DNA from: Bacteroidales bacterium
GTDB taxonomy: Bacteria; Bacteroidota; Bacteroidia; Bacteroidales; UBA7960
DNA: 42,252 nucleotides
Assembly (NCBI GenBank): GCA_007129355.1
Contig: SKVR01000061.1
Coordinates: forward strand, 1-42,252
Reading direction: 5' to 3'
Shown piece by piece: positions 1-10,187 of the stretch. The translations under genes and the position numbers were made by a program. The notes under the pieces are model-generated. The model saw nothing but the letters and a program-made list of their open reading frames with translations. It made no database searches and had not been told where the DNA came from. Position 1 is the stretch's first letter; each line of letters begins with the position of its first letter.

Positions 1-15
1 AAACAGATTATTAAA

Positions 16-90
16 ATGATACAGTTGGCTTTCTTTTTTGGATATTATTTTTTTTATTTCTACCCGCTGGGGAAGAGACCGAAACTATAG
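16..90 (+). CDS. Phe/Tyr-rich attenuator leader peptide, MIQLAFFFGYYFFYFYPLGKRPKL (24 aa)
   Basis: Translated by hand from ATG 16-18 to TAG 88-90. Codons 6-16 contain 6 Phe and 4 Tyr out of 11. It lies directly upstream of a terminator and an aromatic biosynthesis operon. Confidence 0.88.
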   Translation: MIQLAFFFGYYFFYFYPLGKRPKL

Positions 91-152
91 TATCTTTTAA
101 AAAGAAAAGATGTAAAAATAGAAGGTCTCTGCATGCAGGGGCCTTTTTTTTT
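57..152 (+). promoter_or_regulatory. Transcription attenuator with alternative antiterminator and terminator hairpins
   Basis: AGAGACC (74-80) is the exact complement of GGTCTCT (124-130), the 5' arm of the terminator. Nested pairings are CTAT 85-88/ATAG 118-121 and ATCTTTT 92-98/AAAAGAT 105-111. A weak 1:2 hairpin (TTTCT..CCC 57-65 with GGG..AGAGA 69-78) is also possible. Confidence 0.8.
122..152 (+). terminator. Intrinsic terminator of the leader
   Basis: Stem AAGGTCTCTG/CAGGGGCCTT with loop CATG, followed by a T run at 144-152, 30 nt before the first structural gene. Confidence 0.88.
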
Positions 153-182
153 ATGCTTAAATCTTAACACAATTGAACGAAA

Positions 183-1364
183 ATGCAAAATCCAGCTCAT
201 AATACAGATTCACCTATAAAAGAATACTTCTTTGTTGGAGCGCAGCGGCAAAAGGATGAACTCATCCGTCAGGGCCGGCGCATAGCCGACCTTTCTATCG
301 GAAATCCCGATATGCCACCCCCTCCCGAAGTGCTTGATGTTTTAAAACATTCTTTATCGCAATCCGCAAATCATGGATACCAGTCCAATGCCGGCAGTAT
401 TGTATTAAGAAATGCTATTGCATCCTGGTACAACCGGTTTTTTGAAGCGGAAGTGAATCCGGATGGAGAAATTGTTCCATTGCAAGGCTCAAGGCAGGGC
501 ATTTTACAGTTGTCGCAGGCTTTGCTGAAACCCGATGATAAGGTGCTTGTGCCCGATCCGGGTTATCCTTCTTACTCATTTGCTGCAAGGATGATTGGGG
601 CCACACCGGTGCCTTACAGTCTGAATGCGAAAAACGACTTTATTCCTGAATTGGAAGTATTACAGAATTCAAATCTTTCAAAAGTAAAGATCATGTGGGT
701 TAATTACCCCCACATGCCCACAGGTGCAAAGGCTTTGAATGACACCTTCGAGCAGTTGGTGTCGTTTGCCAGCAGCAACAATATCATCATTGTAAATGAC
801 AATGCATATGCATTTGTTCGTAACAATTCCCCCGAAAGTATTTTGTCGGTGGCAGGTGCAAAGGATGTGGCGCTTGAACTGAACTCACTGAGTAAGAATT
901 ATAACATGGCCGGCTGGCGTCTGGGTTTCCTGGCGGGCAGTGCTGCTGTGATTTCCCATTTATCGCAATTGAAGTCGCATCTCGATTCAGGTATCGCCCT
1001 GCCATTGCAACATGCTGCTGCCGCTGCACTTGATCTGGGCTACAAGTGGTTTGCTCCGTTGAATAATGCTTACAACGCAAGGGCGAAATCTGCTCAAAGG
1101 CTGGCACATGCCATGGGTTGCTTGTCTGCCGGTGGAGACGCAGGAATGTTCCTTTGGGTAAAAATGCCTGATATGGGCATGACTTCCTCTGAGTTTGCAC
1201 ATTTGCTTCTTCACGAAGCAGGTGTATTGTTGGCTCCGGGTTCTCTTTTCGGCAGTAATGGTGAAGGACATCTGCGTATTTCACTTTGTGCCCCCGAAGA
1301 GCAATTCGACATCGCCTTAGATAATATCAGAAAATCATCAGTTTTTAACCATAAATACAACTAA
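183..1364 (+). CDS. PLP-dependent aminotransferase class I/II (probable aromatic amino acid/prephenate aminotransferase)
   Basis: Motifs LSIGNPD, NYPHMPTG, DNAY and the PLP-lysine motif SLSKNYNMAGWRLG. First gene of the aro/tyr operon. Confidence 0.88.
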   Translation: MQNPAHNTDSPIKEYFFVGAQRQKDELIRQGRRIADLSIGNPDMPPPPEVLDVLKHSLSQSANHGYQSNAGSIVLRNAIASWYNRFFEAEVNPDGEIVPLQGSRQGILQLSQALLKPDDKVLVPDPGYPSYSFAARMIGATPVPYSLNAKNDFIPELEVLQNSNLSKVKIMWVNYPHMPTGAKALNDTFEQLVSFASSNNIIIVNDNAYAFVRNNSPESILSVAGAKDVALELNSLSKNYNMAGWRLGFLAGSAAVISHLSQLKSHLDSGIALPLQHAAAAALDLGYKWFAPLNNAYNARAKSAQRLAHAMGCLSAGGDAGMFLWVKMPDMGMTSSEFAHLLLHEAGVLLAPGSLFGSNGEGHLRISLCAPEEQFDIALDNIRKSSVFNHKYN

Positions 1365-1365
1365 A

Positions 1366-2265
1366 ATGCACGTAACTATTATAGGAACCGGATTGATGGG
1401 CTGTTCGCTTGGCCTTGCCCTGAAAAAATCAGGACATTATATCACGGGGGTTGACCAAAACGAGACCCATTTGCAGGAAGCCCTGAAACGGGGTGCACTG
1501 GATAAAACGGGAAGGCTGGAAGATGCCATCCGTGAAGCGGATCTGGTAGCGCTTTGTATCCCCGTAAACGCCATAATTTCTGTTTTACCAAAAGTACTTG
1601 ATAACGTACCCCTTCACGCTGCAGTTATGGATATGGGAAGCACCAAGCTCGACATCTGTAATCTGGCCGACAAACATCCGCGCAGAGAGAGTTTTGTAGC
1701 GGTTCATCCTATGGCCGGCGTGGAGCATTCGGGGCCTATGGCCGCACATATTGACATGTTTTTGCATGCACGTGTACTGATATGCAACCCGCAGAATTCT
1801 TCTTCCGATGCACTGAATAAGGTGCTGGGCATACTTCAGGAAATGAAAATGAAAGCTATTTTCATGGATGCACATGACCACGACCGCCAACTGGCGCTGG
1901 TTTCGCATCTTCCGCAATTTATGGCCTATGCATTGTCTTCCATGGAAGAGCTTGACCGGGATACCCATAGAAACTGGACAGAATTGGGTGGGGGCGGACT
2001 ACAGTCATCCATCCGCCTGGGCAAAAGTGATGCAAATATGTGGATGCCCGTTTTTCATCAGAACAAAGAAAATCTCCTGCAATTCCTTAATAGCTATATG
2101 CATCAATTGCTGGAAATGAAAAGAATGATTGAAAATAATCAAGATGATGATCTTAATAAACTCATTAAAAAAGCCAATGCCAACTATGAAAAACTCAATT
2201 ATCGTAATAACAAACCCCGTCCAATGGTTCCAAACCAGGGCGCCCCAAAAGTATTTTACTCATAA
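1366..2265 (+). CDS. tyrA: Prephenate (or arogenate) dehydrogenase
   Basis: Rossmann GTGLMG, DMGSTK, HPMAGVEHSG and HDRQLALVSHLP are TyrA signatures. No ACT domain. Confidence 0.92.
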   Translation: MHVTIIGTGLMGCSLGLALKKSGHYITGVDQNETHLQEALKRGALDKTGRLEDAIREADLVALCIPVNAIISVLPKVLDNVPLHAAVMDMGSTKLDICNLADKHPRRESFVAVHPMAGVEHSGPMAAHIDMFLHARVLICNPQNSSSDALNKVLGILQEMKMKAIFMDAHDHDRQLALVSHLPQFMAYALSSMEELDRDTHRNWTELGGGGLQSSIRLGKSDANMWMPVFHQNKENLLQFLNSYMHQLLEMKRMIENNQDDDLNKLIKKANANYEKLNYRNNKPRPMVPNQGAPKVFYS

Positions 2266-2284
2266 ATCACTAAACAATAATCAC

Positions 2285-2326
2285 TTAACCTTAATCTCAA
2301 CCTTAACCTTAATCTCAACCTTAACC
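2285..2326 (+). repeat. Hexamer tandem array (TYAAYC)x7, an 18-bp unit TTAACCTTAATCTCAACC repeated about 2.3 times
   Basis: Reads ttaacc ttaatc tcaacc ttaacc ttaatc tcaacc ttaacc, ending 4 nt before the ATG at 2331. Confidence 0.9.
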
Positions 2327-2330
2327 TAAT

Positions 2331-3461
2331 ATGAAAATCTCCGAAACTCAAATCCGAAAATCTTCTGCCGGAGTAAACGGCACCCAAAATCCCATCATAA
2401 TTGCCGGCCCGTGCAGTGCCGAAACTCCTGAACAATTAATGGAAACTGCACAAAGCCTTGCCCGTGACAGCCGCGTTGAATATTTCAGGGCAGGCATATG
2501 GAAGCCCCGTACTTCTCCCGATTCCTTCGAAGGAGTTGGAGTTCCCGGACTGGGATGGCTTCAGGATGTTAGAAAAGAAACAGGACTTAAGATAACCACC
2601 GAAGTAGGCTCTGAAAAACATGTGGAAGAAGCCCTGAAAGCCGGTATTGATATGCTGTGGATTGGTGCCCGCACAGTAAGCAACCCATTTATCATACAGG
2701 AAATTGCTGAAGCATTGCGCGGGGTGGATATTCCTGTGCTGGTAAAAAATCCGTTAAGTCCAGATATTGACCTTTGGGAAGGCGCCATAAAACGGCTTGT
2801 GAAGTCGGGTCTTAAGGATGTAGGTGCCATTCACCGTGGTTTCTTCTGGTGGGGAAAATCACATTTGCGTAACCAACCCTTCTGGCACATTCCCATAGAA
2901 CTCAGAGAGCGAATGCCTGGTCTGCGCATCATTTGCGACCCCAGTCATATTGCCGGCAAACGCAGTTTTATCCCTTTGCTGGCTCAACGGGCACTGGAGA
3001 ATGACTTTGCCGGACTAATGGTGGAAGTGCATCCAAGTCCTGATAACGCATGGAGCGATGCTGCACAGCAACTTACACCCGACTCTTTCTGTGATATGCT
3101 TGACGATTTACTGGGAACAGAAAAAGAGAATACATCGCAGGAGCTCCTGGATGAATTGCGTTCGGAAATCGATGTGATGGATGAAATGCTTTTGTGGGCG
3201 TTGGCAGCGCGCATGGAATTGTCGTCCAAAATTGCAAAGGTTAAAAGAGAAAAGCAAATGGAACCTTTGCAGTCGCAAAGATGGGACCAGGTGATGCTAA
3301 GGGTGAAGGACATGGCCATGAAATCGGGCCTGAAACCGCGATTCGTGGAGAAACTTTATACATCCATCCACCAGGAATCATTGAAACTCCAGAAAACTTT
3401 GATAAGCGATGGCAGTAATAATATAAAAAAAGAACATAACTTTGTGGGAGAGAGACAATGA
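2331..3461 (+). CDS. Bifunctional DAHP synthase (type I-beta) / chorismate mutase (C-terminal AroQ domain)
   Basis: IAGPCSAE, RAGIWKPRT, IGART, VLVKNP, DPSH and GLMVEVHP motifs, then a C-terminal LDELRSEID..D..LL..LA.R chorismate mutase helix. Confidence 0.92.
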   Translation: MKISETQIRKSSAGVNGTQNPIIIAGPCSAETPEQLMETAQSLARDSRVEYFRAGIWKPRTSPDSFEGVGVPGLGWLQDVRKETGLKITTEVGSEKHVEEALKAGIDMLWIGARTVSNPFIIQEIAEALRGVDIPVLVKNPLSPDIDLWEGAIKRLVKSGLKDVGAIHRGFFWWGKSHLRNQPFWHIPIELRERMPGLRIICDPSHIAGKRSFIPLLAQRALENDFAGLMVEVHPSPDNAWSDAAQQLTPDSFCDMLDDLLGTEKENTSQELLDELRSEIDVMDEMLLWALAARMELSSKIAKVKREKQMEPLQSQRWDQVMLRVKDMAMKSGLKPRFVEKLYTSIHQESLKLQKTLISDGSNNIKKEHNFVGERQ

Positions 3462-3468
3462 AGTTTGC

Positions 3469-4494
3469 ATGGATAATATAACGATTCAGGGTAAAAGCGG
3501 AATTTCCCGGATTATGGTAGGAGAATCCCTGCCTGCTCTTTCACGCCATATTCCGGCAACAGGTGTTTTTATCATTACAGATAAAAATGTTGCCGCACAC
3601 TACCATTCAGAATTTCCTGATTTTCCTGTTTATGTTGCTGAGCCCGGAGAAGAATCCAAGGATTTTGCTGTGATGACAAAGATATGGCACTGGCTTTTGG
3701 ACCAGGGTGCCGACCGCAGCAGTTTTATTGTAGGCATCGGTGGGGGAGTGGTTTGCGACCTTGCCGGTTTCGTTGCTTCTACATTTATGCGTGGCATTCC
3801 CTTTGGTTTTGTGGCAACTTCCCTGCTTGCACAGGTCGATGCCAGTGTGGGCGGAAAGAATGGGGTAAACCTGGGCGGCTATAAAAACATCATTGGAACA
3901 TTTACTCAGCCCGAATTTGTCATTTGTGACACATCCATGCTCAAAACGTTGCCCGATGGTGAGTTTCGGAACGGAATGGCAGAAGTAATCAAACATGCAC
4001 TTATCAGGGATGCAGATAAGTTTGATTTTCTGAAAAATCACCGCAATGAAATACTAAACCGTGAGCGTGAAGCCATAAATCATATTGTAAACCGATCCGT
4101 CAATATCAAAGCAGGCATAGTGCAAGCCGATGAACTGGAAAGGGGCGAACGCCGTTTACTCAATTTTGGTCACACCTGGGGCCACGCAGTGGAAAAAGAA
4201 AATAAAATTCCACATGGTCAGGCAGTCAGCATTGGAATGGCCTTTGCCGCAAGCTTGTCAGTGCACCTGGGAAATCTGAAAGAAACAGAACTCAATGACA
4301 TCCATTTGCTTCTTCAGGAATATAAGCTTCCGCTGAATATGGAACTGGACAAAAACCGCGTTTTTGATACCCTGCTGAGAGACAAGAAAAAGGAAAAGGA
4401 CAAGATGAATTTTGTATTGCTTAAAACCATCGGAAAGGCTTTTGTGAAAGAGATGGATACAGATGTAATTAAAGAATTTGCTTTAACCTTCTGA
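3469..4494 (+). CDS. aroB: 3-dehydroquinate synthase
   Basis: GGGVVCDLAGF, TSLLAQVDASVGGKNG, LNFGHTWGHAVE and HGQAV. ATG 3469 is preferred over the overlapping GTG at 3442. Confidence 0.95.
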   Translation: MDNITIQGKSGISRIMVGESLPALSRHIPATGVFIITDKNVAAHYHSEFPDFPVYVAEPGEESKDFAVMTKIWHWLLDQGADRSSFIVGIGGGVVCDLAGFVASTFMRGIPFGFVATSLLAQVDASVGGKNGVNLGGYKNIIGTFTQPEFVICDTSMLKTLPDGEFRNGMAEVIKHALIRDADKFDFLKNHRNEILNREREAINHIVNRSVNIKAGIVQADELERGERRLLNFGHTWGHAVEKENKIPHGQAVSIGMAFAASLSVHLGNLKETELNDIHLLLQEYKLPLNMELDKNRVFDTLLRDKKKEKDKMNFVLLKTIGKAFVKEMDTDVIKEFALTF

Positions 4495-4541
4495 TTTAAA
4501 AAGTAAACGGAATTTATTCATTCAATGCAATAATCATTTAA

Positions 4542-4570
4542 AATCATAATCATCCGCGTCATCCGCGTTC
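4542..4570 (+). repeat. Short intergenic tandem repeat: AATCAT x2 leading into TCATCCGCG x2
   Basis: aatcat aatcatccgcg tcatccgcg ttc between aroB and aroA. Confidence 0.7.
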
Positions 4571-4585
4571 CAATCAAAAAAAGAT

Positions 4586-5833
4586 ATGACAGTAGAAATT
4601 ACCCCATCAGCAGTTCATGGACAGGTTCAGGCACCGGCTTCCAAAAGTGTTGCACAAAGGGCTATTGCCATTGCTTCAATTGCCAGCGGCACATCTGAGA
4701 TTTTTCATGTGGGAAAATCTGATGATGTGCAATCAGCCATAAAGGTTTGCAGGGCATTGGGTGCAGAAGTTGAAGAAAAGGGAGAAAAACTTATCATAAA
4801 AGGGGGTATTCAAACTCCTTCTCTGCCATTAAATTGCGGCGAATCGGGTTTGGGTATTCGCATGTTTTCTGCCATTGCAGCCATCCTGAATGAACCGGTT
4901 ACCCTTACGGGAGAAGGTTCGTTGACAGAACGTCCCATGAAAATGATAGAAGAGTCGCTGCAGGCTGCAGGTGTGCAATGCGAAACGCAAAACGGACTTG
5001 TTCCTGTGGTTGTCAAAGGCCCGTTAAAAGGCGGCAATGTAGAGATTGACGGTTCTGTAAGTTCACAGGTGCTGACGGGTTTACTCATAGCTGCTCCGTA
5101 TGCTCTTTCTCCGGTGACTTTCCGCGTAAGCGAACTGAAAAGCCGGCCCTATGTGGATATAACTACCCGCATGATGCAGGATTTCGGGGTGGTGGCAGAA
5201 AACAAAGATTATGAAGAATTTGTTGTTCCTGCGCCGCAGAAATATATATCAAAGTCTTACAATGTTGAAGGAGACTGGAGTGGTGCTGCATTTTTACTGG
5301 TGGCGGGAGCTATAGCAGGTGAAGTTACGGTTACAAACCTTGATTTTCAATCTGCACAGGCCGATAAAGAAATCCTTACAGCTTTGAAAAACTCCGGTGC
5401 AGAGTTGCTGGTTGAACAGGACCGTGTAAGCGTAAAAAAAGCTCAATTGAAAGCTTTTCGTTTTGATGCTACCCACTGTCCGGATTTGTTTCCGCCCCTG
5501 GTAGTATTGGCAGCAGCGTGTGATGGAATTAGCCAGATTCGGGGCATTTCGCGACTGCGGGTTAAGGAAAGCGACCGCGCCACGGCATTGCAGCAGGAGT
5601 TTGGAAAGCTGGGTCTCTACGTTAGTCTTGAAGGTGACAATATGCTCATCAAAGGCAATTCGCTTAACGGTGGTAAGGTATTTTCGCATAACGACCACCG
5701 CATTGCCATGGCCTGTGCAATAGCCGGACTTACCGCCAGCGAACCCGTTATTATCGAAAAAGCTGAGGCTGTTAATAAATCTTACCCGGGTTTTTTTGAA
5801 GATTTAAGGAGTATAACTGTAAGAAGTTATTAA
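4586..5833 (+). CDS. aroA: 3-phosphoshikimate 1-carboxyvinyltransferase (EPSP synthase)
   Basis: PASKS, CGESG, SSQ, LRVKESDR, HNDHRIAMA and KSYPGF motifs. Confidence 0.96.
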   Translation: MTVEITPSAVHGQVQAPASKSVAQRAIAIASIASGTSEIFHVGKSDDVQSAIKVCRALGAEVEEKGEKLIIKGGIQTPSLPLNCGESGLGIRMFSAIAAILNEPVTLTGEGSLTERPMKMIEESLQAAGVQCETQNGLVPVVVKGPLKGGNVEIDGSVSSQVLTGLLIAAPYALSPVTFRVSELKSRPYVDITTRMMQDFGVVAENKDYEEFVVPAPQKYISKSYNVEGDWSGAAFLLVAGAIAGEVTVTNLDFQSAQADKEILTALKNSGAELLVEQDRVSVKKAQLKAFRFDATHCPDLFPPLVVLAAACDGISQIRGISRLRVKESDRATALQQEFGKLGLYVSLEGDNMLIKGNSLNGGKVFSHNDHRIAMACAIAGLTASEPVIIEKAEAVNKSYPGFFEDLRSITVRSY

Positions 5834-5870
5834 TGAGAAAATAAGGAATTAAGAAAGTAAGTAAAACTAA

Positions 5871-5892
5871 TTCGACCCCGGCCGGGGGCAAA
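5871..5892. repeat. REP-like imperfect palindrome TTCGACCCC-GGCC-GGGGGCAAA
   Basis: GC-rich 22-bp inverted repeat with 2 mismatches in an AT-rich intra-operon spacer. No U tract. Confidence 0.55.
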
Positions 5893-5949
5893 CCCGTTTC
5901 ACTTAACTAAACTCTGCGTCCACAGTGTCTCTATGTCTTAGCAGTAAAG

Positions 5950-5974
5950 AATCAAAAATCAAAAATCAAAAATC
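5950..5974 (+). repeat. Heptamer tandem repeat (AATCAAA)x3 plus AATC
   Basis: Read directly; ends 7 nt before the aroC ATG at 5982. Confidence 0.85.
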
Positions 5975-5981
5975 TCTATCC

Positions 5982-6977
5982 ATGAATTCATTTGGAACCC
6001 TTTTTCGCATCAGTATATTCGGAGAATCACACGGAGCAGCCATCGGAATAACCATCGACGGTTGTCCACCGGGCCTTCCCCTATCAGAAGAAGATTTTAC
6101 CCATGACCTTGAGCGTCGCAAGCCGGGCGCAAAGGGCACCACTCCCCGCAAGGAAGATGACAGCCCGGAAATCGTTTCAGGATTATTTCGCGGACATACC
6201 ACCGGCGCTCCCATGACCATTCTCTTCCGGAATAAAAATGTACGTTCTGCAGATTACGACAACCTGGTGAAAACTCCCCGTCCCGGGCATTCGGATTTTG
6301 TAGCATGGAAACGTTTCGGTGGCTTCAATGACCACCGCGGTGGCGGGCATTTCTCCGGTAGGCTCACCTTGGCTCTTGTGGCAGCAGGCGTTGTAGCAAA
6401 AAAACTTATTGAGCCTGTGGAAATCAATGCCAGACTTATTGCCGCCGGGGGCAATCCGGATATAGAAAAAGCAGTGGAAGAAGCCTTGGCAGTAGGTGAT
6501 TCGGTGGGTGGACTGGTAGAGTGCAAGTCGCAAAATATTCCCCTGGGCTGGGGCGAACCATTTTTTAATTCAGTTGAATCGGTTATCAGCCATCTGGCGT
6601 TTGCTGTGCCTGCCATCAAAGGAATAGAGTTTGGTTCCGGATTTACAGCTGCTACTATGAAAGGAAGCGAGCATAACGACCCCATTCTGGACGAAACCGG
6701 CAAAACTGCCACCAACAATGCCGGTGGAATTACCGGCGGACTTACCAATGGAAACGAGTTAATTTTCCGTGTGGCTGTAAAACCCACATCCAGTATCGGC
6801 ATACAGCAAAAAACCTGGAGTATTGAAACTCAAAAAGTGGAAAACCTGGAAGTAAAAGGCCGCCACGATGCCTGTATCGCTCTTCGTGTACCTGTTGTTA
6901 TTGAAGCTATTACCTCCATTGCCCTCGCCGATATGAAGCTTAATTTTAAAAAGTCCGACCCCATTAATAAAGCTTAA
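5982..6977 (+). CDS. aroC: Chorismate synthase
   Basis: N-terminal MNSFG...FGESHG, PRPGHSD, GGGHFSGR, NNAGGITGG and GRHDAC. ATG 5982 matches the family N-terminus better than GTG 5925. Confidence 0.96.
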   Translation: MNSFGTLFRISIFGESHGAAIGITIDGCPPGLPLSEEDFTHDLERRKPGAKGTTPRKEDDSPEIVSGLFRGHTTGAPMTILFRNKNVRSADYDNLVKTPRPGHSDFVAWKRFGGFNDHRGGGHFSGRLTLALVAAGVVAKKLIEPVEINARLIAAGGNPDIEKAVEEALAVGDSVGGLVECKSQNIPLGWGEPFFNSVESVISHLAFAVPAIKGIEFGSGFTAATMKGSEHNDPILDETGKTATNNAGGITGGLTNGNELIFRVAVKPTSSIGIQQKTWSIETQKVENLEVKGRHDACIALRVPVVIEAITSIALADMKLNFKKSDPINKA

Positions 6978-7018
6978 AATTATATATCTGCATAACAAAA
7001 TATGTTTTGTAATTTTCT

Positions 7019-7048
7019 TTTGAACTTAAAACAAAAGCAGTAATTTTG
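7019..7048 (+). promoter_or_regulatory. Bacteroidota sigma-A type promoter for trxB
   Basis: -7 box TAATTTTG at 7041-7048, with TTTG at 7019-7022 upstream. Confidence 0.6.
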
Positions 7049-7087
7049 CACAAAATTTATAAGAAAAACACATTTTATTAAACAGTT

Positions 7088-8026
7088 ATGAGCGAGAATA
7101 TTGAAAAAATCAAGTGTTTGATCATTGGTTCGGGTCCTGCCGGTTACACAGCAGCTATTTATGCTGCCAGGGCCGATCTGCATCCGGTAATTTACCAGGG
7201 TTTGCAGCCCGGTGGTCAGCTTACAATTACCACTGACGTAGAGAACTATCCGGGTTATCCTGATGGGGTAAAGGGTCCGGAAATGATGGTAGAATTTCAG
7301 AAGCAGGCCGAAAGATTCGGTACAGATGTGCGCTGGGGTTTGGCAACGGCGGTTGATTTGAGTAAGAGACCCTTCAAAGTAACCATTGATGAAAAGAATG
7401 AAGTTTTGGCAGAAACCCTTATCATTGCCACCGGAGCTACGGCCAAATGGCTAGGTATGGAATCTGAAAAGAAATTCAACGGGTTTGGTGTTTCGGCTTG
7501 TGCCACCTGCGACGGATTTTTTTATAAAGGACAAACGGTTGCCGTAGTGGGTGGTGGTGACACTGCCTGCGAAGAAGCTTCATACCTTTCCAAACTTTGC
7601 AAAAAAGTATACCTTATTCACCGCCGCGATGAACTGCGTGCTTCAAAAGCCATGCAGCACAGGGTAATGAAAGCCGAAAATATTGAAATCGTCTGGAATC
7701 ATGTTCCCAAAGAGATCGTGGGCGATAAAACGGTAAACGGTGTAATTCTTGAGAATACTCAAACCGGCGAAGAAAAGCGCCTTGATATAGAAGGATTTTT
7801 TGTGGCAATAGGTCACAAACCCAATTCCGATATTTTCAAAGGACAACTGAAGATGGATGAAAACAGCTACCTGATCACCAGGCCTGATTCTACTGCTACT
7901 GAAGTACCCGGCGTTTTTGCCTGTGGTGATGTACAGGATCATGTGTACCGTCAGGCAGTTACCGCAGCCGGTACAGGCTGTATGGCCGCCATAGAAGCTG
8001 AAAGGTTTTTATCAGACCAGGAGTAA
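7088..8026 (+). CDS. trxB: Thioredoxin-disulfide reductase
   Basis: GSGPAG, PGGQL, active site [18 protein letters not shown] and GVFACGDV. Confidence 0.97.
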
Positions 8027-8046
8027 TTTTATGACACTCAACTTAG

Positions 8047-8083
8047 AAGGGCTGTTTCAGAAATAGAATGCAGCCCTTTTTTT
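8047..8083 (+). terminator. Intrinsic terminator after trxB
   Basis: Stem AAGGGCTG (8047-8054)/CAGCCCTT (8071-8078) followed by a T run. Confidence 0.8.
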
Positions 8084-8336
8084 ATTTGATTTTTCTTCTG
8101 ATTTGGTTAATCAGGACAATCAAGCTTTAAATCATTTTTTCTAGATCCCTAATAATAAATGCTGTAAAACTTGAAAAAAAACAACCCGATTTGAAAAAAA
8201 AATCTGATATTTGAAATGTATGCCCAAAAATGAGTCTTTGCTGAATAAATCTTGAATATTCTCGACAAGAAGAATTTTGAATCTTAAGCCTTTTTTAAGG
8301 AAAACTACAGTTAAAAATAGAAATACTACCAACTGA

Positions 8337-10187
8337 ATGAATCTATTTTCATTACTTTCTTTCATTTCTTTCATTCTGTTTCTCCAGGCAGGTGTTTATG
8401 TGCTGTTTAAGAACAGCCGACCTTTGCTTAACCGGGTATTTGTGTTATTATCTTTCCTTTTTGCATTGTATGCACTGAGTTATAATTTATTTTTCAATGC
8501 AGAAACTCTGGAAGAAGTCTATCTTTATGACAGAATTGCATCTCCTGGTTGGGTATTCTTTCCCATTATATCAGTGTGGTTTTCTATTCTAATTACTAAC
8601 AATAAATCTTACGTTGTTCGCTTAATTTGCTATCTCTTTCTTTTGCCGATAGCCTTGTTTTCTTTTTATATAGCCCTTACCGATCTGGAGTCTGTAAAAC
8701 TATTTTACTATCAGAATGAAAACTGGTTTTATACTCCCTATGATCACACTTTGGCCTATATGCTTTTTATAGCATATCTCACTGTTAGTGTTCTGGTTAT
8801 GTATTTTGTACTTATAGGATGGTATTACTCTGCAGATAGCAATAGACAAAAGATGCAAGCCAAAATTATGCTGGCGGCATTATCCGTTTTCTTTGTGATT
8901 TCATTTTTAACCAACCTGGTCCTTCCGGTTATTCAGTTGGATATTTTACCAGCCCTTGCACCTATAAATGCTATAGTTCTTCTAGGTGGTATGTTTCTTA
9001 CTCTTACCCTTCAGCCGAAGGTTTATATAGCCAAGGAACTGATTTATAACCTGATTAACCTGCATGTTAAAGAGTTTGTTTTCATGTTGAATAAGGATCT
9101 CGAGATTTTTTCGGCTAATCAGTATTCTCTTAATCAGTTGAAATATAATCCTTACAGTCTGCAGAAAAAAGATCCTAATTTGATTTTTTCCGATTATAAT
9201 AAAATCATTCAGACGATTCAAAGAATGAATAAAAGAGATGATTTTCCACAAATAAGAATGGATCTATTAAGCATTGAGCGCAAATCAATACCTGTTTTAT
9301 TATCGATTATTAAGGTTAGAAATTCTTTCAGGAGGGTTGAAGGTTATGCGCTTGTTTGTACGAATTACAGGCAAAAACTTAAACTGAAAGAAGAAATTGC
9401 GGAGCGTGTTCGCACTGAAAAGAACTTGTATCAGATAAGAAAGGAACTTGAGTTTTTGGTAAAAAAGCGCACTCACGAATTACAGGAAGCCAACCAAAGG
9501 CTGCAACAGGAAGTAATTGAAAGAAAACGGGCTGAACAGCAAATAAAGGCGGATCTGGAGCAAAAAATTGAACTTGTGCAGGAGGTACATCACAGGGTCA
9601 AAAATAATATCCAGATGATTATTTCATTAATTAATATGCTTTGTAGCCATCCTGTCATTGACAGTCAAACATCTGATCATTTGAGAGACATAGCTGAGAA
9701 GGTAAGGTATATCTCAAGGTTACATGAAGATTTTTACGCATCACCCAATCTTTCCAGAATTGCTTTTTCTCCCTATTTGAAAAAAATCATTGGCGAGCTC
9801 TACAGTAATTATGGAAACAGTTCGGAAATAGTTTTTAAATTGAATATTGCTGATGAATTTCTTGAAATTAATCAAGCCATTCCGCTTGGAATAATTTTCA
9901 ACGAACTTCTTATCAACGCAATGAAGTATGCTTTTATGGATGAAACCGGGCCTGATGAAAAATCAGTAATCCGTGTGGAGTTTTTTAAGAAAAGTGGAAA
10001 AGTTACCCTGATTGTAAAAGATAACGGAGTTGGATTGCCACTGGGATTCAACCTTGTACACTCAGGTAATGTTGGTCTGAAGCTGGTACGTATTCTTGCC
10101 AAAGATCATTTAAGAGGTGAAATTGAAAGCTCTGTTAATCATGGTACACGTTTTAAAGTAACTTTTGATGAGAATTTGATTACCTGA
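8337..10187 (+). CDS. Membrane sensor histidine kinase: HisKA_7TM-like sensor, PAS-like region, HisKA_2/HWE-type core, HATPase
   Basis: About seven hydrophobic N-terminal segments, coiled coil VKKRTHEL, H-box EVHHRVKNN, N-box NELLINAMKYAF and G1 DNGVG. Confidence 0.9.
   Translation: MNLFSLLSFISFILFLQAGVYVLFKNSRPLLNRVFVLLSFLFALYALSYNLFFNAETLEEVYLYDRIASPGWVFFPIISVWFSILITNNKSYVVRLICYLFLLPIALFSFYIALTDLESVKLFYYQNENWFYTPYDHTLAYMLFIAYLTVSVLVMYFVLIGWYYSADSNRQKMQAKIMLAALSVFFVISFLTNLVLPVIQLDILPALAPINAIVLLGGMFLTLTLQPKVYIAKELIYNLINLHVKEFVFMLNKDLEIFSANQYSLNQLKYNPYSLQKKDPNLIFSDYNKIIQTIQRMNKRDDFPQIRMDLLSIERKSIPVLLSIIKVRNSFRRVEGYALVCTNYRQKLKLKEEIAERVRTEKNLYQIRKELEFLVKKRTHELQEANQRLQQEVIERKRAEQQIKADLEQKIELVQEVHHRVKNNIQMIISLINMLCSHPVIDSQTSDHLRDIAEKVRYISRLHEDFYASPNLSRIAFSPYLKKIIGELYSNYGNSSEIVFKLNIADEFLEINQAIPLGIIFNELLINAMKYAFMDETGPDEKSVIRVEFFKKSGKVTLIVKDNGVGLPLGFNLVHSGNVGLKLVRILAKDHLRGEIESSVNHGTRFKVTFDENLIT

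Follow-up and report, generated by a model that had tools for sequence, protein, structure and literature searches.

The window analysed here is a 42,252-nt stretch of contig SKVR01000061.1 (assembly GCA_007129355.1, Bacteroidales bacterium), and position 1 of the window is also the first base of the contig. Fifteen nucleotides from this end begins a short open reading frame (ORF) rich in Phe and Tyr (F/Y) codons, which overlaps a set of alternative RNA structures and is followed by six genes, all on the forward strand:

1–15 (+): A/T-rich spacer lacking a Shine–Dalgarno sequence, between the leader ORF and a probable upstream attenuator cut by the contig end
16–90 (+): leader ORF, with orthologous ORFs in 14 same-genus loci and two metagenome contigs
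31–63 (+): regulatory block, codons 6–16, composed of 6 Phe, 4 Tyr and 1 Gly (11 codons)
30–107 (+): anti-antiterminator hairpin (regions 1:2) in minimum free energy (MFE) folds, in which the F/Y codons pair with 70–107 and AGAGA (74–78) is sequestered
74–130 (+): antiterminator (regions 2:3), outer stem 74–80/124–130, or 72–80/124–132 if base 73 is C
85–88/118–121 and 91–98/105–112 (+): nested inner helices of the antiterminator
120–152 (+): intrinsic terminator (regions 3:4), stem 120–131/136–147, loop 132–135, T-run 144–152
183–1364 (+): class I/II aminotransferase, the first structural gene (Pfam PF00155, E = 8e-58)
1366–2265 (+): prephenate dehydrogenase, tyrA (Pfam PDH_N, PDH_C)
2331–3461 (+): DAHP synthase–chorismate mutase (DAHPS/CM) fusion (Pfam DAHP_synth_1, CM_2)
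3442–4494 (+): 3-dehydroquinate synthase, aroB (Pfam DHQ_synthase, DHQS_C)
4586–5833 (+): EPSP synthase, aroA (Pfam EPSP_synthase)
5925–6977 (+): chorismate synthase, aroC (Pfam Chorismate_synt), the last gene before a promoter-like motif

The six genes are probably co-transcribed. Neither a terminator nor a Bacteroidetes-type promoter motif was found between 153 and 6977, and no TAnnTTTG motif was found in the 30 nt that separate the T-run from the aminotransferase ATG. The gap after aroC contains TTTG at 7019 and TAATTTTG at 7041. A sigma-70 promoter scan was set aside as inapplicable to Bacteroidota. The downstream genes produce Phe and Tyr precursors; pheA lies outside the operon in this genus, at another site and without a leader. 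The Pfam matches and the uninterrupted interval agree with the gene set named in a first-pass annotation of this DNA (tyrA, DAHPS/CM, aroB, aroA and aroC), which was incomplete in that it left out the first controlled gene, the aminotransferase.

The leader ORF comprises 24 codons, translates to MIQLAFFFGYYFFYFYPLGKRPKL and ends with a TAG stop codon at 88–90. This hidden frame, its 6 Phe and 4 Tyr codons within 11 and its lack of a Trp codon are all as the first-pass annotation described them. Among 956 candidates in the whole 3.1-Mb genome that combine a small ORF with a terminator, the best 10-codon window contains 9 F/Y codons here and 6 in the runner-up. The search of this genome for other leader peptides (W-, I/T-, V/I- and H-rich ORFs) led us to inspect two candidates (C79 and C305), both of which lie inside coding sequence and are spurious. 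The pattern (TWY)7, run over 61 genomes of the family, was uninformative because a control pattern was equally frequent.

The codon identities of the block are preserved. All 15 orthologues retain 4–6 F and 3–5 Y codons, and 16 of the 20 variant codon types in the F/Y columns still specify one of these two residues (7 synonymous changes and 9 F↔Y exchanges), compared with the 2/9 expected for random single-base changes (binomial p = 7e-8). One relative (G019) has lost the leader stop codon. Base 73, an A in the window, is a C in every covering contig of all four DNA runs, as well as in 14/14 relatives and both metagenome contigs; the outer antiterminator stem is therefore probably 9 bp long (GCAGAGACC/GGTCTCTGC) and codon 20 probably encodes Q rather than K. 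Among the listed sequencing runs that contain this DNA, none is recorded as RNA. From its sequence, the ORF is likely to be translated, with the ribosome stalling on the F/Y codons, and the mixed block suggests that Tyr is sensed as well as Phe.

The terminator has a G+C core (124–131/136–143) and a run of nine T residues that ends at 152, 30 nt upstream of the ATG at 183. It is strong, standing far ahead of any other terminator-like site in positions 1–8500 of the window, and confirms the intrinsic terminator previously placed at 122–152, with a start two bases earlier. AGAGACC (74–80) is the exact complement of GGTCTCT (124–130), so that bases 124–130 can pair either with 74–80 or with 137–143; this mutual exclusivity is found in 15/15 orthologues. 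Both this alternative pairing and the two nested helices reported with it are present, and the antiterminator including the nested helices has a predicted energy of −17.9 kcal/mol. The antiterminator (−17.9 to −29.0 kcal/mol) is more stable than the terminator hairpin (−12.6 to −19.4 kcal/mol) in each of the 14 sequences computed. The fold of positions 1–160 has a z-score of −4.4, with 0/200 shuffles as stable, and full-length MFE structures contain the terminator in 14/15 orthologues and the 1:2 hairpin in 13/15. In three species the terminator adopts another register with GGTCTCT unchanged, and the inner antiterminator helices vary in sequence between subgroups while being constantly present.

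The effect of ribosome position was modelled by folding nascent transcripts of 15 orthologues, cut before the 3′ arm of the terminator, with the ribosome footprint masked; the antiterminator was counted as formed when at least 6 of 7 outer pairs were present. The antiterminator forms at 138/143 codon positions when the ribosome sits on an F/Y codon; when the stop codon is occupied, it is missing in 13/14 informative sequences. In 5/15 orthologues it is already the MFE structure of the truncated transcript without a ribosome. Equilibrium folding of the full leader always retained the terminator, also when a ribosome was masked, and the model thus depends on kinetic, co-transcriptional folding. 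For the masked and unmasked folding proposed by the first-pass annotation, a switch with ribosome position is seen in transcripts cut before the 3′ arm and is not seen in the full leader at equilibrium. Together, the folds and the mask model bear out the three-structure switch of the trp/phe/his architecture to which the locus had been assigned: it combines a codon-rich ORF, a terminator, an exclusive antiterminator, a 1:2 hairpin, a suitably placed stop codon and biosynthetic genes downstream.

The unit is conserved in 17 same-genus sequences, and conservation is higher in the leader than in the coding DNA downstream. Relative to metagenome contig L114, positions 1–152 are 96.1% identical and coding positions 159–1504 are 82.2% identical; the corresponding values for G019 are 93% and 74%. 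In the outer antiterminator stem (8 pairs in 15 sequences), we observed one compensatory A-U to G-C change, seven cells changed to wobble pairs and 3/120 cells broken. RNAalifold predicted 0 pairs on a MAFFT alignment of the whole leader because the subgroups were aligned out of register. In an alignment of 17 sequences fitted to a covariance model, 81.3% of cells pair versus 45–67% in slid controls, and covariation in this same alignment does not exceed that of shuffles (four pairs change on both sides, a number matched by 263/500 shuffles). A stretch of at least 7 nt complementary to the 5′ arm of the terminator lies between codon block and terminator in 52 of 62 distinct F/Y leader units (48 distinct terminator arms), versus 12/62 for a reversed-arm control. 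The search of relatives suggested earlier thus recovered F/Y-rich upstream ORFs in orthologous operons, and the covarying stems sought along with them are not significant within the genus.

In every relative for which upstream DNA is available, the unit comes second in a tandem pair of F/Y attenuators. The tandem is present in 14/14 same-genus loci (one of them cut inside unit 1), in G021, in metagenome contigs L113 and L114, and in two genomes from another genus of this family (G083 and G085). In L113, L114 and L003, the bases that match window positions 1–15 directly follow the T-run of terminator 1, and in the relatives the stretch from the promoter through units 1 and 2 to the operon is free of genes. 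The promoter and unit-1 region of a relative gave no blastn match in any of the 326 contigs of this assembly, and contigs assembled from the DNA runs extend past base 1, one loose end corresponding to the T-run of a preceding terminator. Since the assembly ends at base 1, a promoter and first unit are expected here by comparison with relatives, in which a single promoter appears to serve both units. The control by ‘one leader’ described in the first-pass annotation consequently needs revision: the window starts at a contig end and its leader is the second of a pair in relatives.

The two units are distinct subtypes. The second follows the pattern FFFGYYF.YFYP..GR and the upstream unit the pattern MSNFFxYTYFFYFYF..., and folding predicts the same stall/stop behaviour for the upstream unit. 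Applied to the window, a covariance model of the second unit (R1) gives 154.4 bits; it reaches 100–155 bits on 17/17 same-genus sequences and only 29–37 bits for upstream-type units. In genus g4, the peptide tail of the second unit is IPRWGR rather than YPLWGRDR, and this unit had no match to model R1 at E ≤ 0.01.

We conclude, with a probability of about 0.8, that 16–152 is a classical ribosome-mediated leader-peptide transcription attenuator in front of the aminotransferase–tyrA–DAHPS/CM–aroB–aroA–aroC genes. The ORF, the three exclusive structures, the conservation, the F/Y-preserving substitutions, the tandem layout of relatives and the gene content are computational findings. RNA polymerase would start at a promoter beyond the contig end and pass an earlier F/Y attenuator first. 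An ample supply of charged tRNA-Phe, and probably of charged tRNA-Tyr, would let the ribosome cross codons 6–16 and reach the stop codon at 88–90, where it would cover about 73–102, leaving 74–80 unable to pair with 124–130. Hairpin 120–147 with its nine-T tail could then form and end transcription before the aminotransferase gene. Without any ribosome, the F/Y codons would pair with 70–107 and termination would likewise be expected. Under a shortage of Phe or Tyr, the ribosome would stall within 31–63 and free 74–112, which could pair with 105–130 once that segment is made, blocking the terminator and allowing read-through into the six genes.

With two units in series, read-through probabilities should multiply, lowering basal expression and steepening the response. 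We suggest tentatively, at somewhat less than even odds, that the doubling is functional: a two-stage gate on the same signal, in which multiplied read-through would bring the basal level far down and make induction of the whole shikimate/Tyr operon steeper and switch-like, and which would have been kept since before the two genera split and have arisen independently in a Flavobacteriales lineage. A response sharpened by doubling is also seen with tandem T-boxes and tandem riboswitches. The conserved doubling is an uncommon twist on a known kind of attenuator, and no characterised case of a same-signal tandem of leader-peptide attenuators was found in the literature searched.

The mixed codon block could also be read as a Phe-only sensor, in which tRNA-Phe charging alone sets read-through and the Tyr codons are either tolerated or useful for RNA pairing, through their A residues with U residues in region 2. 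The block does form the 5′ strand of hairpin 30–107, so its bases are also structurally constrained, and the Corynebacterium glutamicum aroR peptide, the one tested mixed leader that turned up in the literature searched, holds F-Y-F, with Tyr availability reportedly without effect (PMC11802643). We nevertheless regard this reading as unlikely, given that 3–5 Tyr codons are kept in 15/15 orthologues, that F↔Y is the commonest non-synonymous change (9/13), that the mixture persists across Bacteroidales leaders with differing pairing-partner sequences, and that tyrA is in the operon with pheA located elsewhere without a leader. Two mutually exclusive structures would, by themselves, be compatible with a translation-independent switch in which a protein or small ligand picks the 74–130 structure or the terminator and the ORF is incidental. 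Such a switch is improbable: the frame, the start codon and F/Y codon identity are conserved with synonymous changes, the modelled ribosome at the stop codon prevents the antiterminator in 13/14 informative sequences, the ORF-plus-structure design recurs with unrelated arm sequences, and none of the Rfam riboswitches and protein-binding leaders matched this leader at threshold.

A role in trans is very improbable, whether as a functional aromatic micropeptide or as a terminated leader RNA of ~150 nt that replaces or adds to attenuation in cis. Termination would yield a stable RNA rich in hairpins, and in Sinorhizobium trans functions have been described for attenuator-derived RNAs and for leader peptides; here, however, F and Y are freely exchanged, the peptide tail follows the RNA arm sequence rather than any peptide motif, and no pointer to any target was found. 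Hardly credible at all is a chance T-rich ORF beside the ordinary terminator of an upstream transcript, with the operon using its own promoter. That explanation draws on the absence of upstream DNA from this assembly and on the abundance of F/Y-like runs in A/T-rich DNA, where (TWY)7 is as frequent as its control. It is opposed by the mere 30 nt, devoid of a TAnnTTTG motif, from T-run to aminotransferase ATG, by the gene-free interval from promoter through units 1 and 2 to the operon in relatives, by the genome-unique F/Y density of the ORF beside a terminator, and by conservation of the leader above that of the genes.

As a leader-peptide attenuator, the locus resembles the pheL-pheA system of E. 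coli and other gammaproteobacteria (Rfam RF01859, Phe_leader) in its short aromatic-codon ORF, its 1:2, 2:3 and 3:4 hairpins and its terminator before an aromatic gene. It differs in phylum (relatives here are labelled Bacteroidales), in mixed Phe and Tyr codons where pheL has Phe only, in the lack of a Shine–Dalgarno sequence, and in the aminotransferase–tyrA–DAHPS/CM–aroBAC genes in place of pheA. The Phe_leader model aligns to positions 15–151 with E = 2e-5 (1.7e-6 in a smaller search). The alignment reaches 44.2 bits where the gathering score is 55, and the locus departs from the Phe-only, pheA-upstream pattern of the Gammaproteobacteria; the likeness is most likely analogy, not homology. 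According to PMC3082878, descriptions of pheL genes are confined to the gamma subdivision. The C. glutamicum aroR leader peptide, which attenuates aroF (DAHP synthase) according to an excerpt of PMC11802643 citing Neshat et al. 2014, shares the mixed Phe/Tyr composition, the DAHP synthase operon and the use of attenuation. Unlike the window, with its 10 F/Y codons, tandem arrangement and different phylum, aroR holds just F-Y-F, and the response reported for it is to Phe and not to Tyr. The mgtCBR leader of Salmonella likewise places two attenuators with short ORFs in series (PMC3641672, in part); there mgtM and mgtP sense ATP and proline, whereas here the same F/Y signal would be read twice, each unit with its own intrinsic terminator.

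Closer to the window are the single leaders that precede pheA–aminotransferase–DAHPS/CM operons in Bacteroidales, which have the same logic and F/Y mixture; the upstream unit resembles that of B. pyogenes (MKSFTYAYYFFFYFYFY...). The window unit is unlike them in being a second unit of distinct subtype, and pheA is gone from the operon here. The curated Bacteroidetes motif Bacteroid-trp (RF01692), named for trp, presumably also works by leader-peptide attenuation; it concerns another amino acid, differs in sequence and gave no match to the window. It appears as a cis-regulatory leader motif in Weinberg et al. 2010 (PMC2864571, Table 1).

F/Y leaders precede the pheA operon across Bacteroidales. 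A single unit of the upstream type lies before pheA in 42/80 Bacteroidota loci examined, in every case below the Rfam threshold; Phe_leader scores are 39.8 bits for unit 2 and 29.0 bits for unit 1 of L113, and 27.0 bits for B. pyogenes. A BTnc231 (RF04180) candidate was dismissed at 21.8–25.7 bits against a gathering score of 80.4. The expectation that standard annotation would miss the window leader holds, at 44.2 bits against 55. Comparative studies by Vitreschak et al. 2004 and Lopatovskaya et al. 2010 reportedly predicted attenuators in Bacteroidetes, so an earlier prediction of Bacteroidota F/Y attenuators may exist. Our full-text literature searches returned no description of a Phe/Tyr leader in Bacteroidales; the supplementary tables of PMC9723704 and PMC7366714 may list such elements. 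For amino-acid operons, Guerin et al. 2021 (PMC9723704) see ‘strong clues’ of control by leader-peptide attenuation; upstream of pheA in Flavobacteriaceae they describe a conserved 5′ element without an Rfam match. With that leader-peptide element proposed and F/Y leaders before pheA across Bacteroidales, the sensor is not peculiar to this lineage.

Leader-peptide attenuation is a textbook mechanism in Proteobacteria, and its aromatic cases in Bacteroidota are hardly documented and uncurated. Bacteroidota, which initiate translation without a Shine–Dalgarno lead, are dominant in gut and sediment communities. The locus is a well-supported added example, belonging to a whole group missed by Rfam-based annotation. 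It offers a natural test of whether two amino acids are sensed by one leader and of what identical-signal attenuators achieve in series. With a covariance model built from these sequences, control of Phe/Tyr biosynthesis could be annotated across many Bacteroidota genomes.

The element at the start of the window is a conserved, classical leader-peptide attenuator whose mechanism is that of the textbook trp/phe/his model. Ribosome-mediated attenuation with a response to at least Phe has, in our estimate, a probability of about 0.8; a response to Tyr as well is plausible. Its parts, and the operon whose first gene starts thirty bases past the T-run, are as follows.

16–90, + strand: leader ORF MIQLAFFFGYYFFYFYPLGKRPKL, 24 codons with an ATG start; stop TAG at 88–90
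31–63, + strand: regulatory codon block, codons 6–16, with six Phe, four Tyr and one Gly
120–147, + strand: terminator hairpin of 12 bp, G+C core 124–131/136–143, loop 132–135
ending at 152: run of nine T directly 3′ of the terminator hairpin
183–1364: class I/II aminotransferase
1366–2265: prephenate dehydrogenase
2331–3461: DAHP synthase–chorismate mutase fusion (DAHPS-CM)
3442–4494: aroB
4586–5833: aroA
5925–6977: aroC

The sequence and folds bear out every coordinate that the first-pass annotation assigned to the ORF, terminator and complementary arms, and it read the attenuator anatomy correctly. GGTCTCT (124–130) is exactly complementary to AGAGACC (74–80); this stem, together with nested helices 85–88/118–121 and 91–98/105–112, forms an alternative antiterminator structure of −17.9 kcal/mol. 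The minimum free energy (MFE) fold of 1–160 has the terminator next to a long hairpin (30–107), which sequesters 74–78 and whose 5′ strand is formed by the F/Y codons. This fold totals −45.9 kcal/mol (z = −4.4), and none of 200 shuffles folded as well. The 120–147 hairpin and its T-run are the sole strong terminator-like site within 1–8500. Base 73 is A in the assembly and C in contigs from all four DNA runs, in all 14 relatives and in both metagenome contigs. The A probably reflects a variant of the assembly or the strain; a C at this position extends the antiterminator stem by a pair, to 9 bp, and makes codon 20 a Gln codon.

Such a leader is exceptional within its own genome. A scan of the whole 3.1-Mb assembly for ATG-initiated ORFs of 8–45 codons lying at most 170 nt upstream of a hairpin and T-run returned 956 candidates, among which the best 10-codon window holds 9 F/Y codons in the 16–90 ORF and 6 in the runner-up. 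The Rfam Phe_leader model (RF01859) aligns end to end with 15–151 at 44.2 bits (E = 2e-5 when 3 kb were searched, 1.7e-6 for 260 nt). Routine annotation would miss the leader, since the curated threshold is 55 bits. None of the leaders tested reaches the threshold: 39.8 and 29.0 bits for the second and first units of metagenome contig L113, and 27.0 bits for Bacteroides pyogenes.

Classical attenuators work kinetically; as expected from this, the full leader folded at equilibrium retains the terminator under every mask applied. We modeled nascent transcripts of 15 orthologues, cut just 5′ of the terminator 3′ arm, with 28 nt masked around the ribosomal A site; the 74–80/124–130 stem was counted as formed when at least 6 of its 7 pairs were present. 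Of 143 F/Y codon positions occupied by the ribosome, 138 give the stem. When the ribosome sits at the stop codon instead, 13 of the 14 informative sequences lack it, the exception being genome G005; G019 is uninformative because its stop codon is lost. Without a ribosome, 10 of the 15 transcripts lack the stem and 5 have it. In all 14 sequences computed, the terminator hairpin is less stable than the antiterminator segment, and full-length MFE folds contain the terminator in 14 and the 30–107 hairpin in 13 of the 15 orthologues. The same stall/stop logic is followed by a related upstream unit (unit 1, described below) in 13 sequences, and by leaders of a second genus, a Flavobacteriales MAG, B. 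pyogenes, a Parabacteroides and a Muribaculaceae MAG.

Sequence conservation is higher in the leader than in the genes it precedes: 96.1% (1–152) against 82.2% (159–1504) in comparison with metagenome contig L114, and 93% against 74% with G019. The 8 pairs of the outer antiterminator stem, compared across 15 sequences, include a single compensatory change (A-U to G-C) and seven substitutions to wobble pairs; 3 of the 120 cells are broken. The inner helices differ in sequence between subgroups, and three species have the terminator in another register with GGTCTCT retained. A MAFFT alignment of the whole leader places the subgroups out of register, and RNAalifold consequently found no pairs in it. 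In a model-fitted alignment of 17 sequences (100–155 bits against the covariance model), 81.3% of cells pair, versus 45–67% in slid controls; covariation in these sequences is not above shuffles, as the 4 pairs that change on both sides are a count reached by 263 of 500. The F/Y uORFs anticipated in relatives are present; covariation of their stems within the genus is not significant, and within-genus structure rests on conservation and pairing.

Structural support is stronger across the phylum. Of 62 distinct F/Y leader units, whose terminator 5′ arms comprise 48 distinct sequences, 52 carry between codon block and terminator a complement to their own arm that runs for 7 or more bases without a break, compared with 12 of 62 for reversed arms; per-unit shuffles give p < 0.05 in 33 of 62.

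In the 11-codon block, the 15 orthologues carry 4 to 6 Phe and 3 to 5 Tyr. Variant codon types in the F/Y columns still encode Phe or Tyr in 16 of 20 cases (7 synonymous, 9 F↔Y), where random single-base changes would be expected to do so in 2 of 9 (binomial p = 7e-8, computed on variants that are not all independent of one another and in some cases differ at more than one base). This pattern indicates selection on the reading frame and F/Y class, and says nothing of the effect of Tyr limitation. The F/Y codon bases also pair in hairpin 30–107.

The contig starts 15 bases 5′ of the leader ATG, and the upstream part of the leader region is on no other contig of the assembly. A single leader had been described; this reading missed a probable first of two units, which would lie beyond the contig end and is seen as a tandem partner upstream in relatives. 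Among 61 relatives searched at the DNA level, 14 of the 21 same-genus genomes carry the leader (93%, 92% and 89% identity in the three closest, 70–83% in the remaining matches); the seven lacking a match are 82–96% complete. All 14 loci have another F/Y-rich ORF (e.g. MSNFFAYTYFFYFYFTGKSGA) about 150 nt upstream with its own G+C hairpin and T-run, unit 1 being cut by the contig end in one. A fifteenth same-genus genome (G021) has a diverged pair that the DNA search missed. Upstream of the first ORF, the alignment contains a conserved block, TTTG ... TAATATTGCA, resembling the Bacteroidetes promoter consensus (TTTG/TAnnTTTG); the stretch between the two units has no conserved counterpart.

Two JGI metagenome contigs, L113 and L114, matched in an exact-word search; each has the promoter block, then unit 1 with its terminator, then the window's first bases, unit 2 and finally the aminotransferase. 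L113 is 85.8% identical to the window over 3.37 kb, and we assign both contigs to related species, not the window's own. Contigs of four DNA runs on window 1–600 include records that extend past base 1, and one loose contig end beyond it reads as a T-run followed by the window's first bases. In G019 (locus L003), the unit 2 stop TAG (window 88–90) is AAG and the ORF continues through the terminator region, with unit 1 intact; attenuation by unit 2 may be altered there.

Gaps between the operon genes contain no terminator-like site and no TAnnTTTG motif. Two carry other features: a perfect 18-nt tandem repeat (CTTAACCTTAATCTCAAC, 2.4 copies) fills the tyrA/DAHPS-CM gap (2284–2327), and a G+C-rich palindrome without a T-run (CCCCGGCCGGGG) lies between aroA and aroC (5876–5891). 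The gap 3′ of aroC holds a Bacteroidetes-type promoter motif (7019–7048: TTTG at 7019, 18 nt, then TAATTTTG at 7041), which makes it probable that the trxB-like gene at 7088 is transcribed from a separate promoter. After that gene comes a hairpin, GGGCTG/CAGCCC, that ends in a T-run (about 8046–8083), and the two signals suggest a separate transcription unit downstream of aroC. Farther on, 8337–10187 encodes a sensor histidine kinase with an N-terminal 7TM region (HisKA_7TM, PAS, HisKA_2, HATPase_c). Elsewhere in the genome, a monocistronic pheA (contig C281; 1459–2343 of fetched locus L112) lacks a leader ORF, as does a second DAHPS-CM paralogue (47% identical; contig C229, 2937–4025), so just one of the two DAHPS isozymes is under F/Y attenuation.

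The DAHPS-CM protein retrieved 80 Bacteroidota loci; in 42 of them, the operon is immediately preceded by a uORF rich in F/Y (7 or more of 10 codons). The ten closest (65–94% identity) share the window's gene order and tandem pair, one cut and one with an open stop codon; an eleventh (95%) is cut at the contig end. In 31 loci, labeled Bacteroides, Parabacteroides, Tannerella, Tannerellaceae, Muribaculaceae, Paludibacteraceae, Prevotellaceae, Alistipes, Dysgonamonadaceae and others, a single leader lies about 60–120 nt before pheA–aminotransferase–DAHPS/CM (the aminotransferase gene is missing in one). A Flavobacteriales MAG (L055, 4642–4930) has two near-duplicate F/Y units (…FYFFYFFSK…) with near-identical terminators before pheA, a doubling that looks independent and recent. 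Five Flavobacteriales/Crocinitomicaceae loci (L072, L081, L089, L091, L096) have a short F.FFY[FY] uORF at the corresponding place; conserved, of 14 codons (M..(P/R)GF.FFY(F/Y)(D/E)..) and located some 2.1 kb 5′ of DAHPS-CM, this uORF is a possible minimal F/Y leader. The rest of the 80 loci yield no F/Y uORF at these thresholds, several having a short upstream stretch.

Among 20 loci from other genera of the window's family, two genomes of genus g4 have tandem pairs whose second ORF ends ...IPRWGR, like the window's ...YPLWGRDR, and G026 has two F/Y uORFs about 570 nt apart before tyrA. Eight loci have single leaders and nine have none, the upstream stretch being short in three.

The suggestion that such a sensor may be undescribed in this lineage went too far: Phe/Tyr operons of Bacteroidales are as a rule preceded by F/Y leaders. 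A Bacteroidota trp leader motif is present in Rfam (PMC2864571). A Flavobacterium psychrophilum transcriptome study reports indications of attenuation by leader peptides upstream of amino-acid operons, together with a conserved element 5′ of pheA that has no Rfam match (PMC9723704), and a B. thetaiotaomicron transcriptome study mentions sORFs 'reminiscent of leader peptides' (PMC7366714). Among papers searchable in full text, none describes or tests a Phe/Tyr leader in Bacteroidales; older comparative-genomics work also covers Bacteroidetes. In C. glutamicum, the mixed F-Y-F leader aroR controls aroF, with a reported response to Phe, not Tyr (PMC11802643). Salmonella mgtCBR has tandem attenuators with two short ORFs, which sense different signals (PMC3641672), whereas the doubling in the window's family is same-signal. 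This kind of attenuator is already known, and what is new is an uncurated, putative member recognized by sequence; its most unusual feature is the same-signal doubling conserved at family level.
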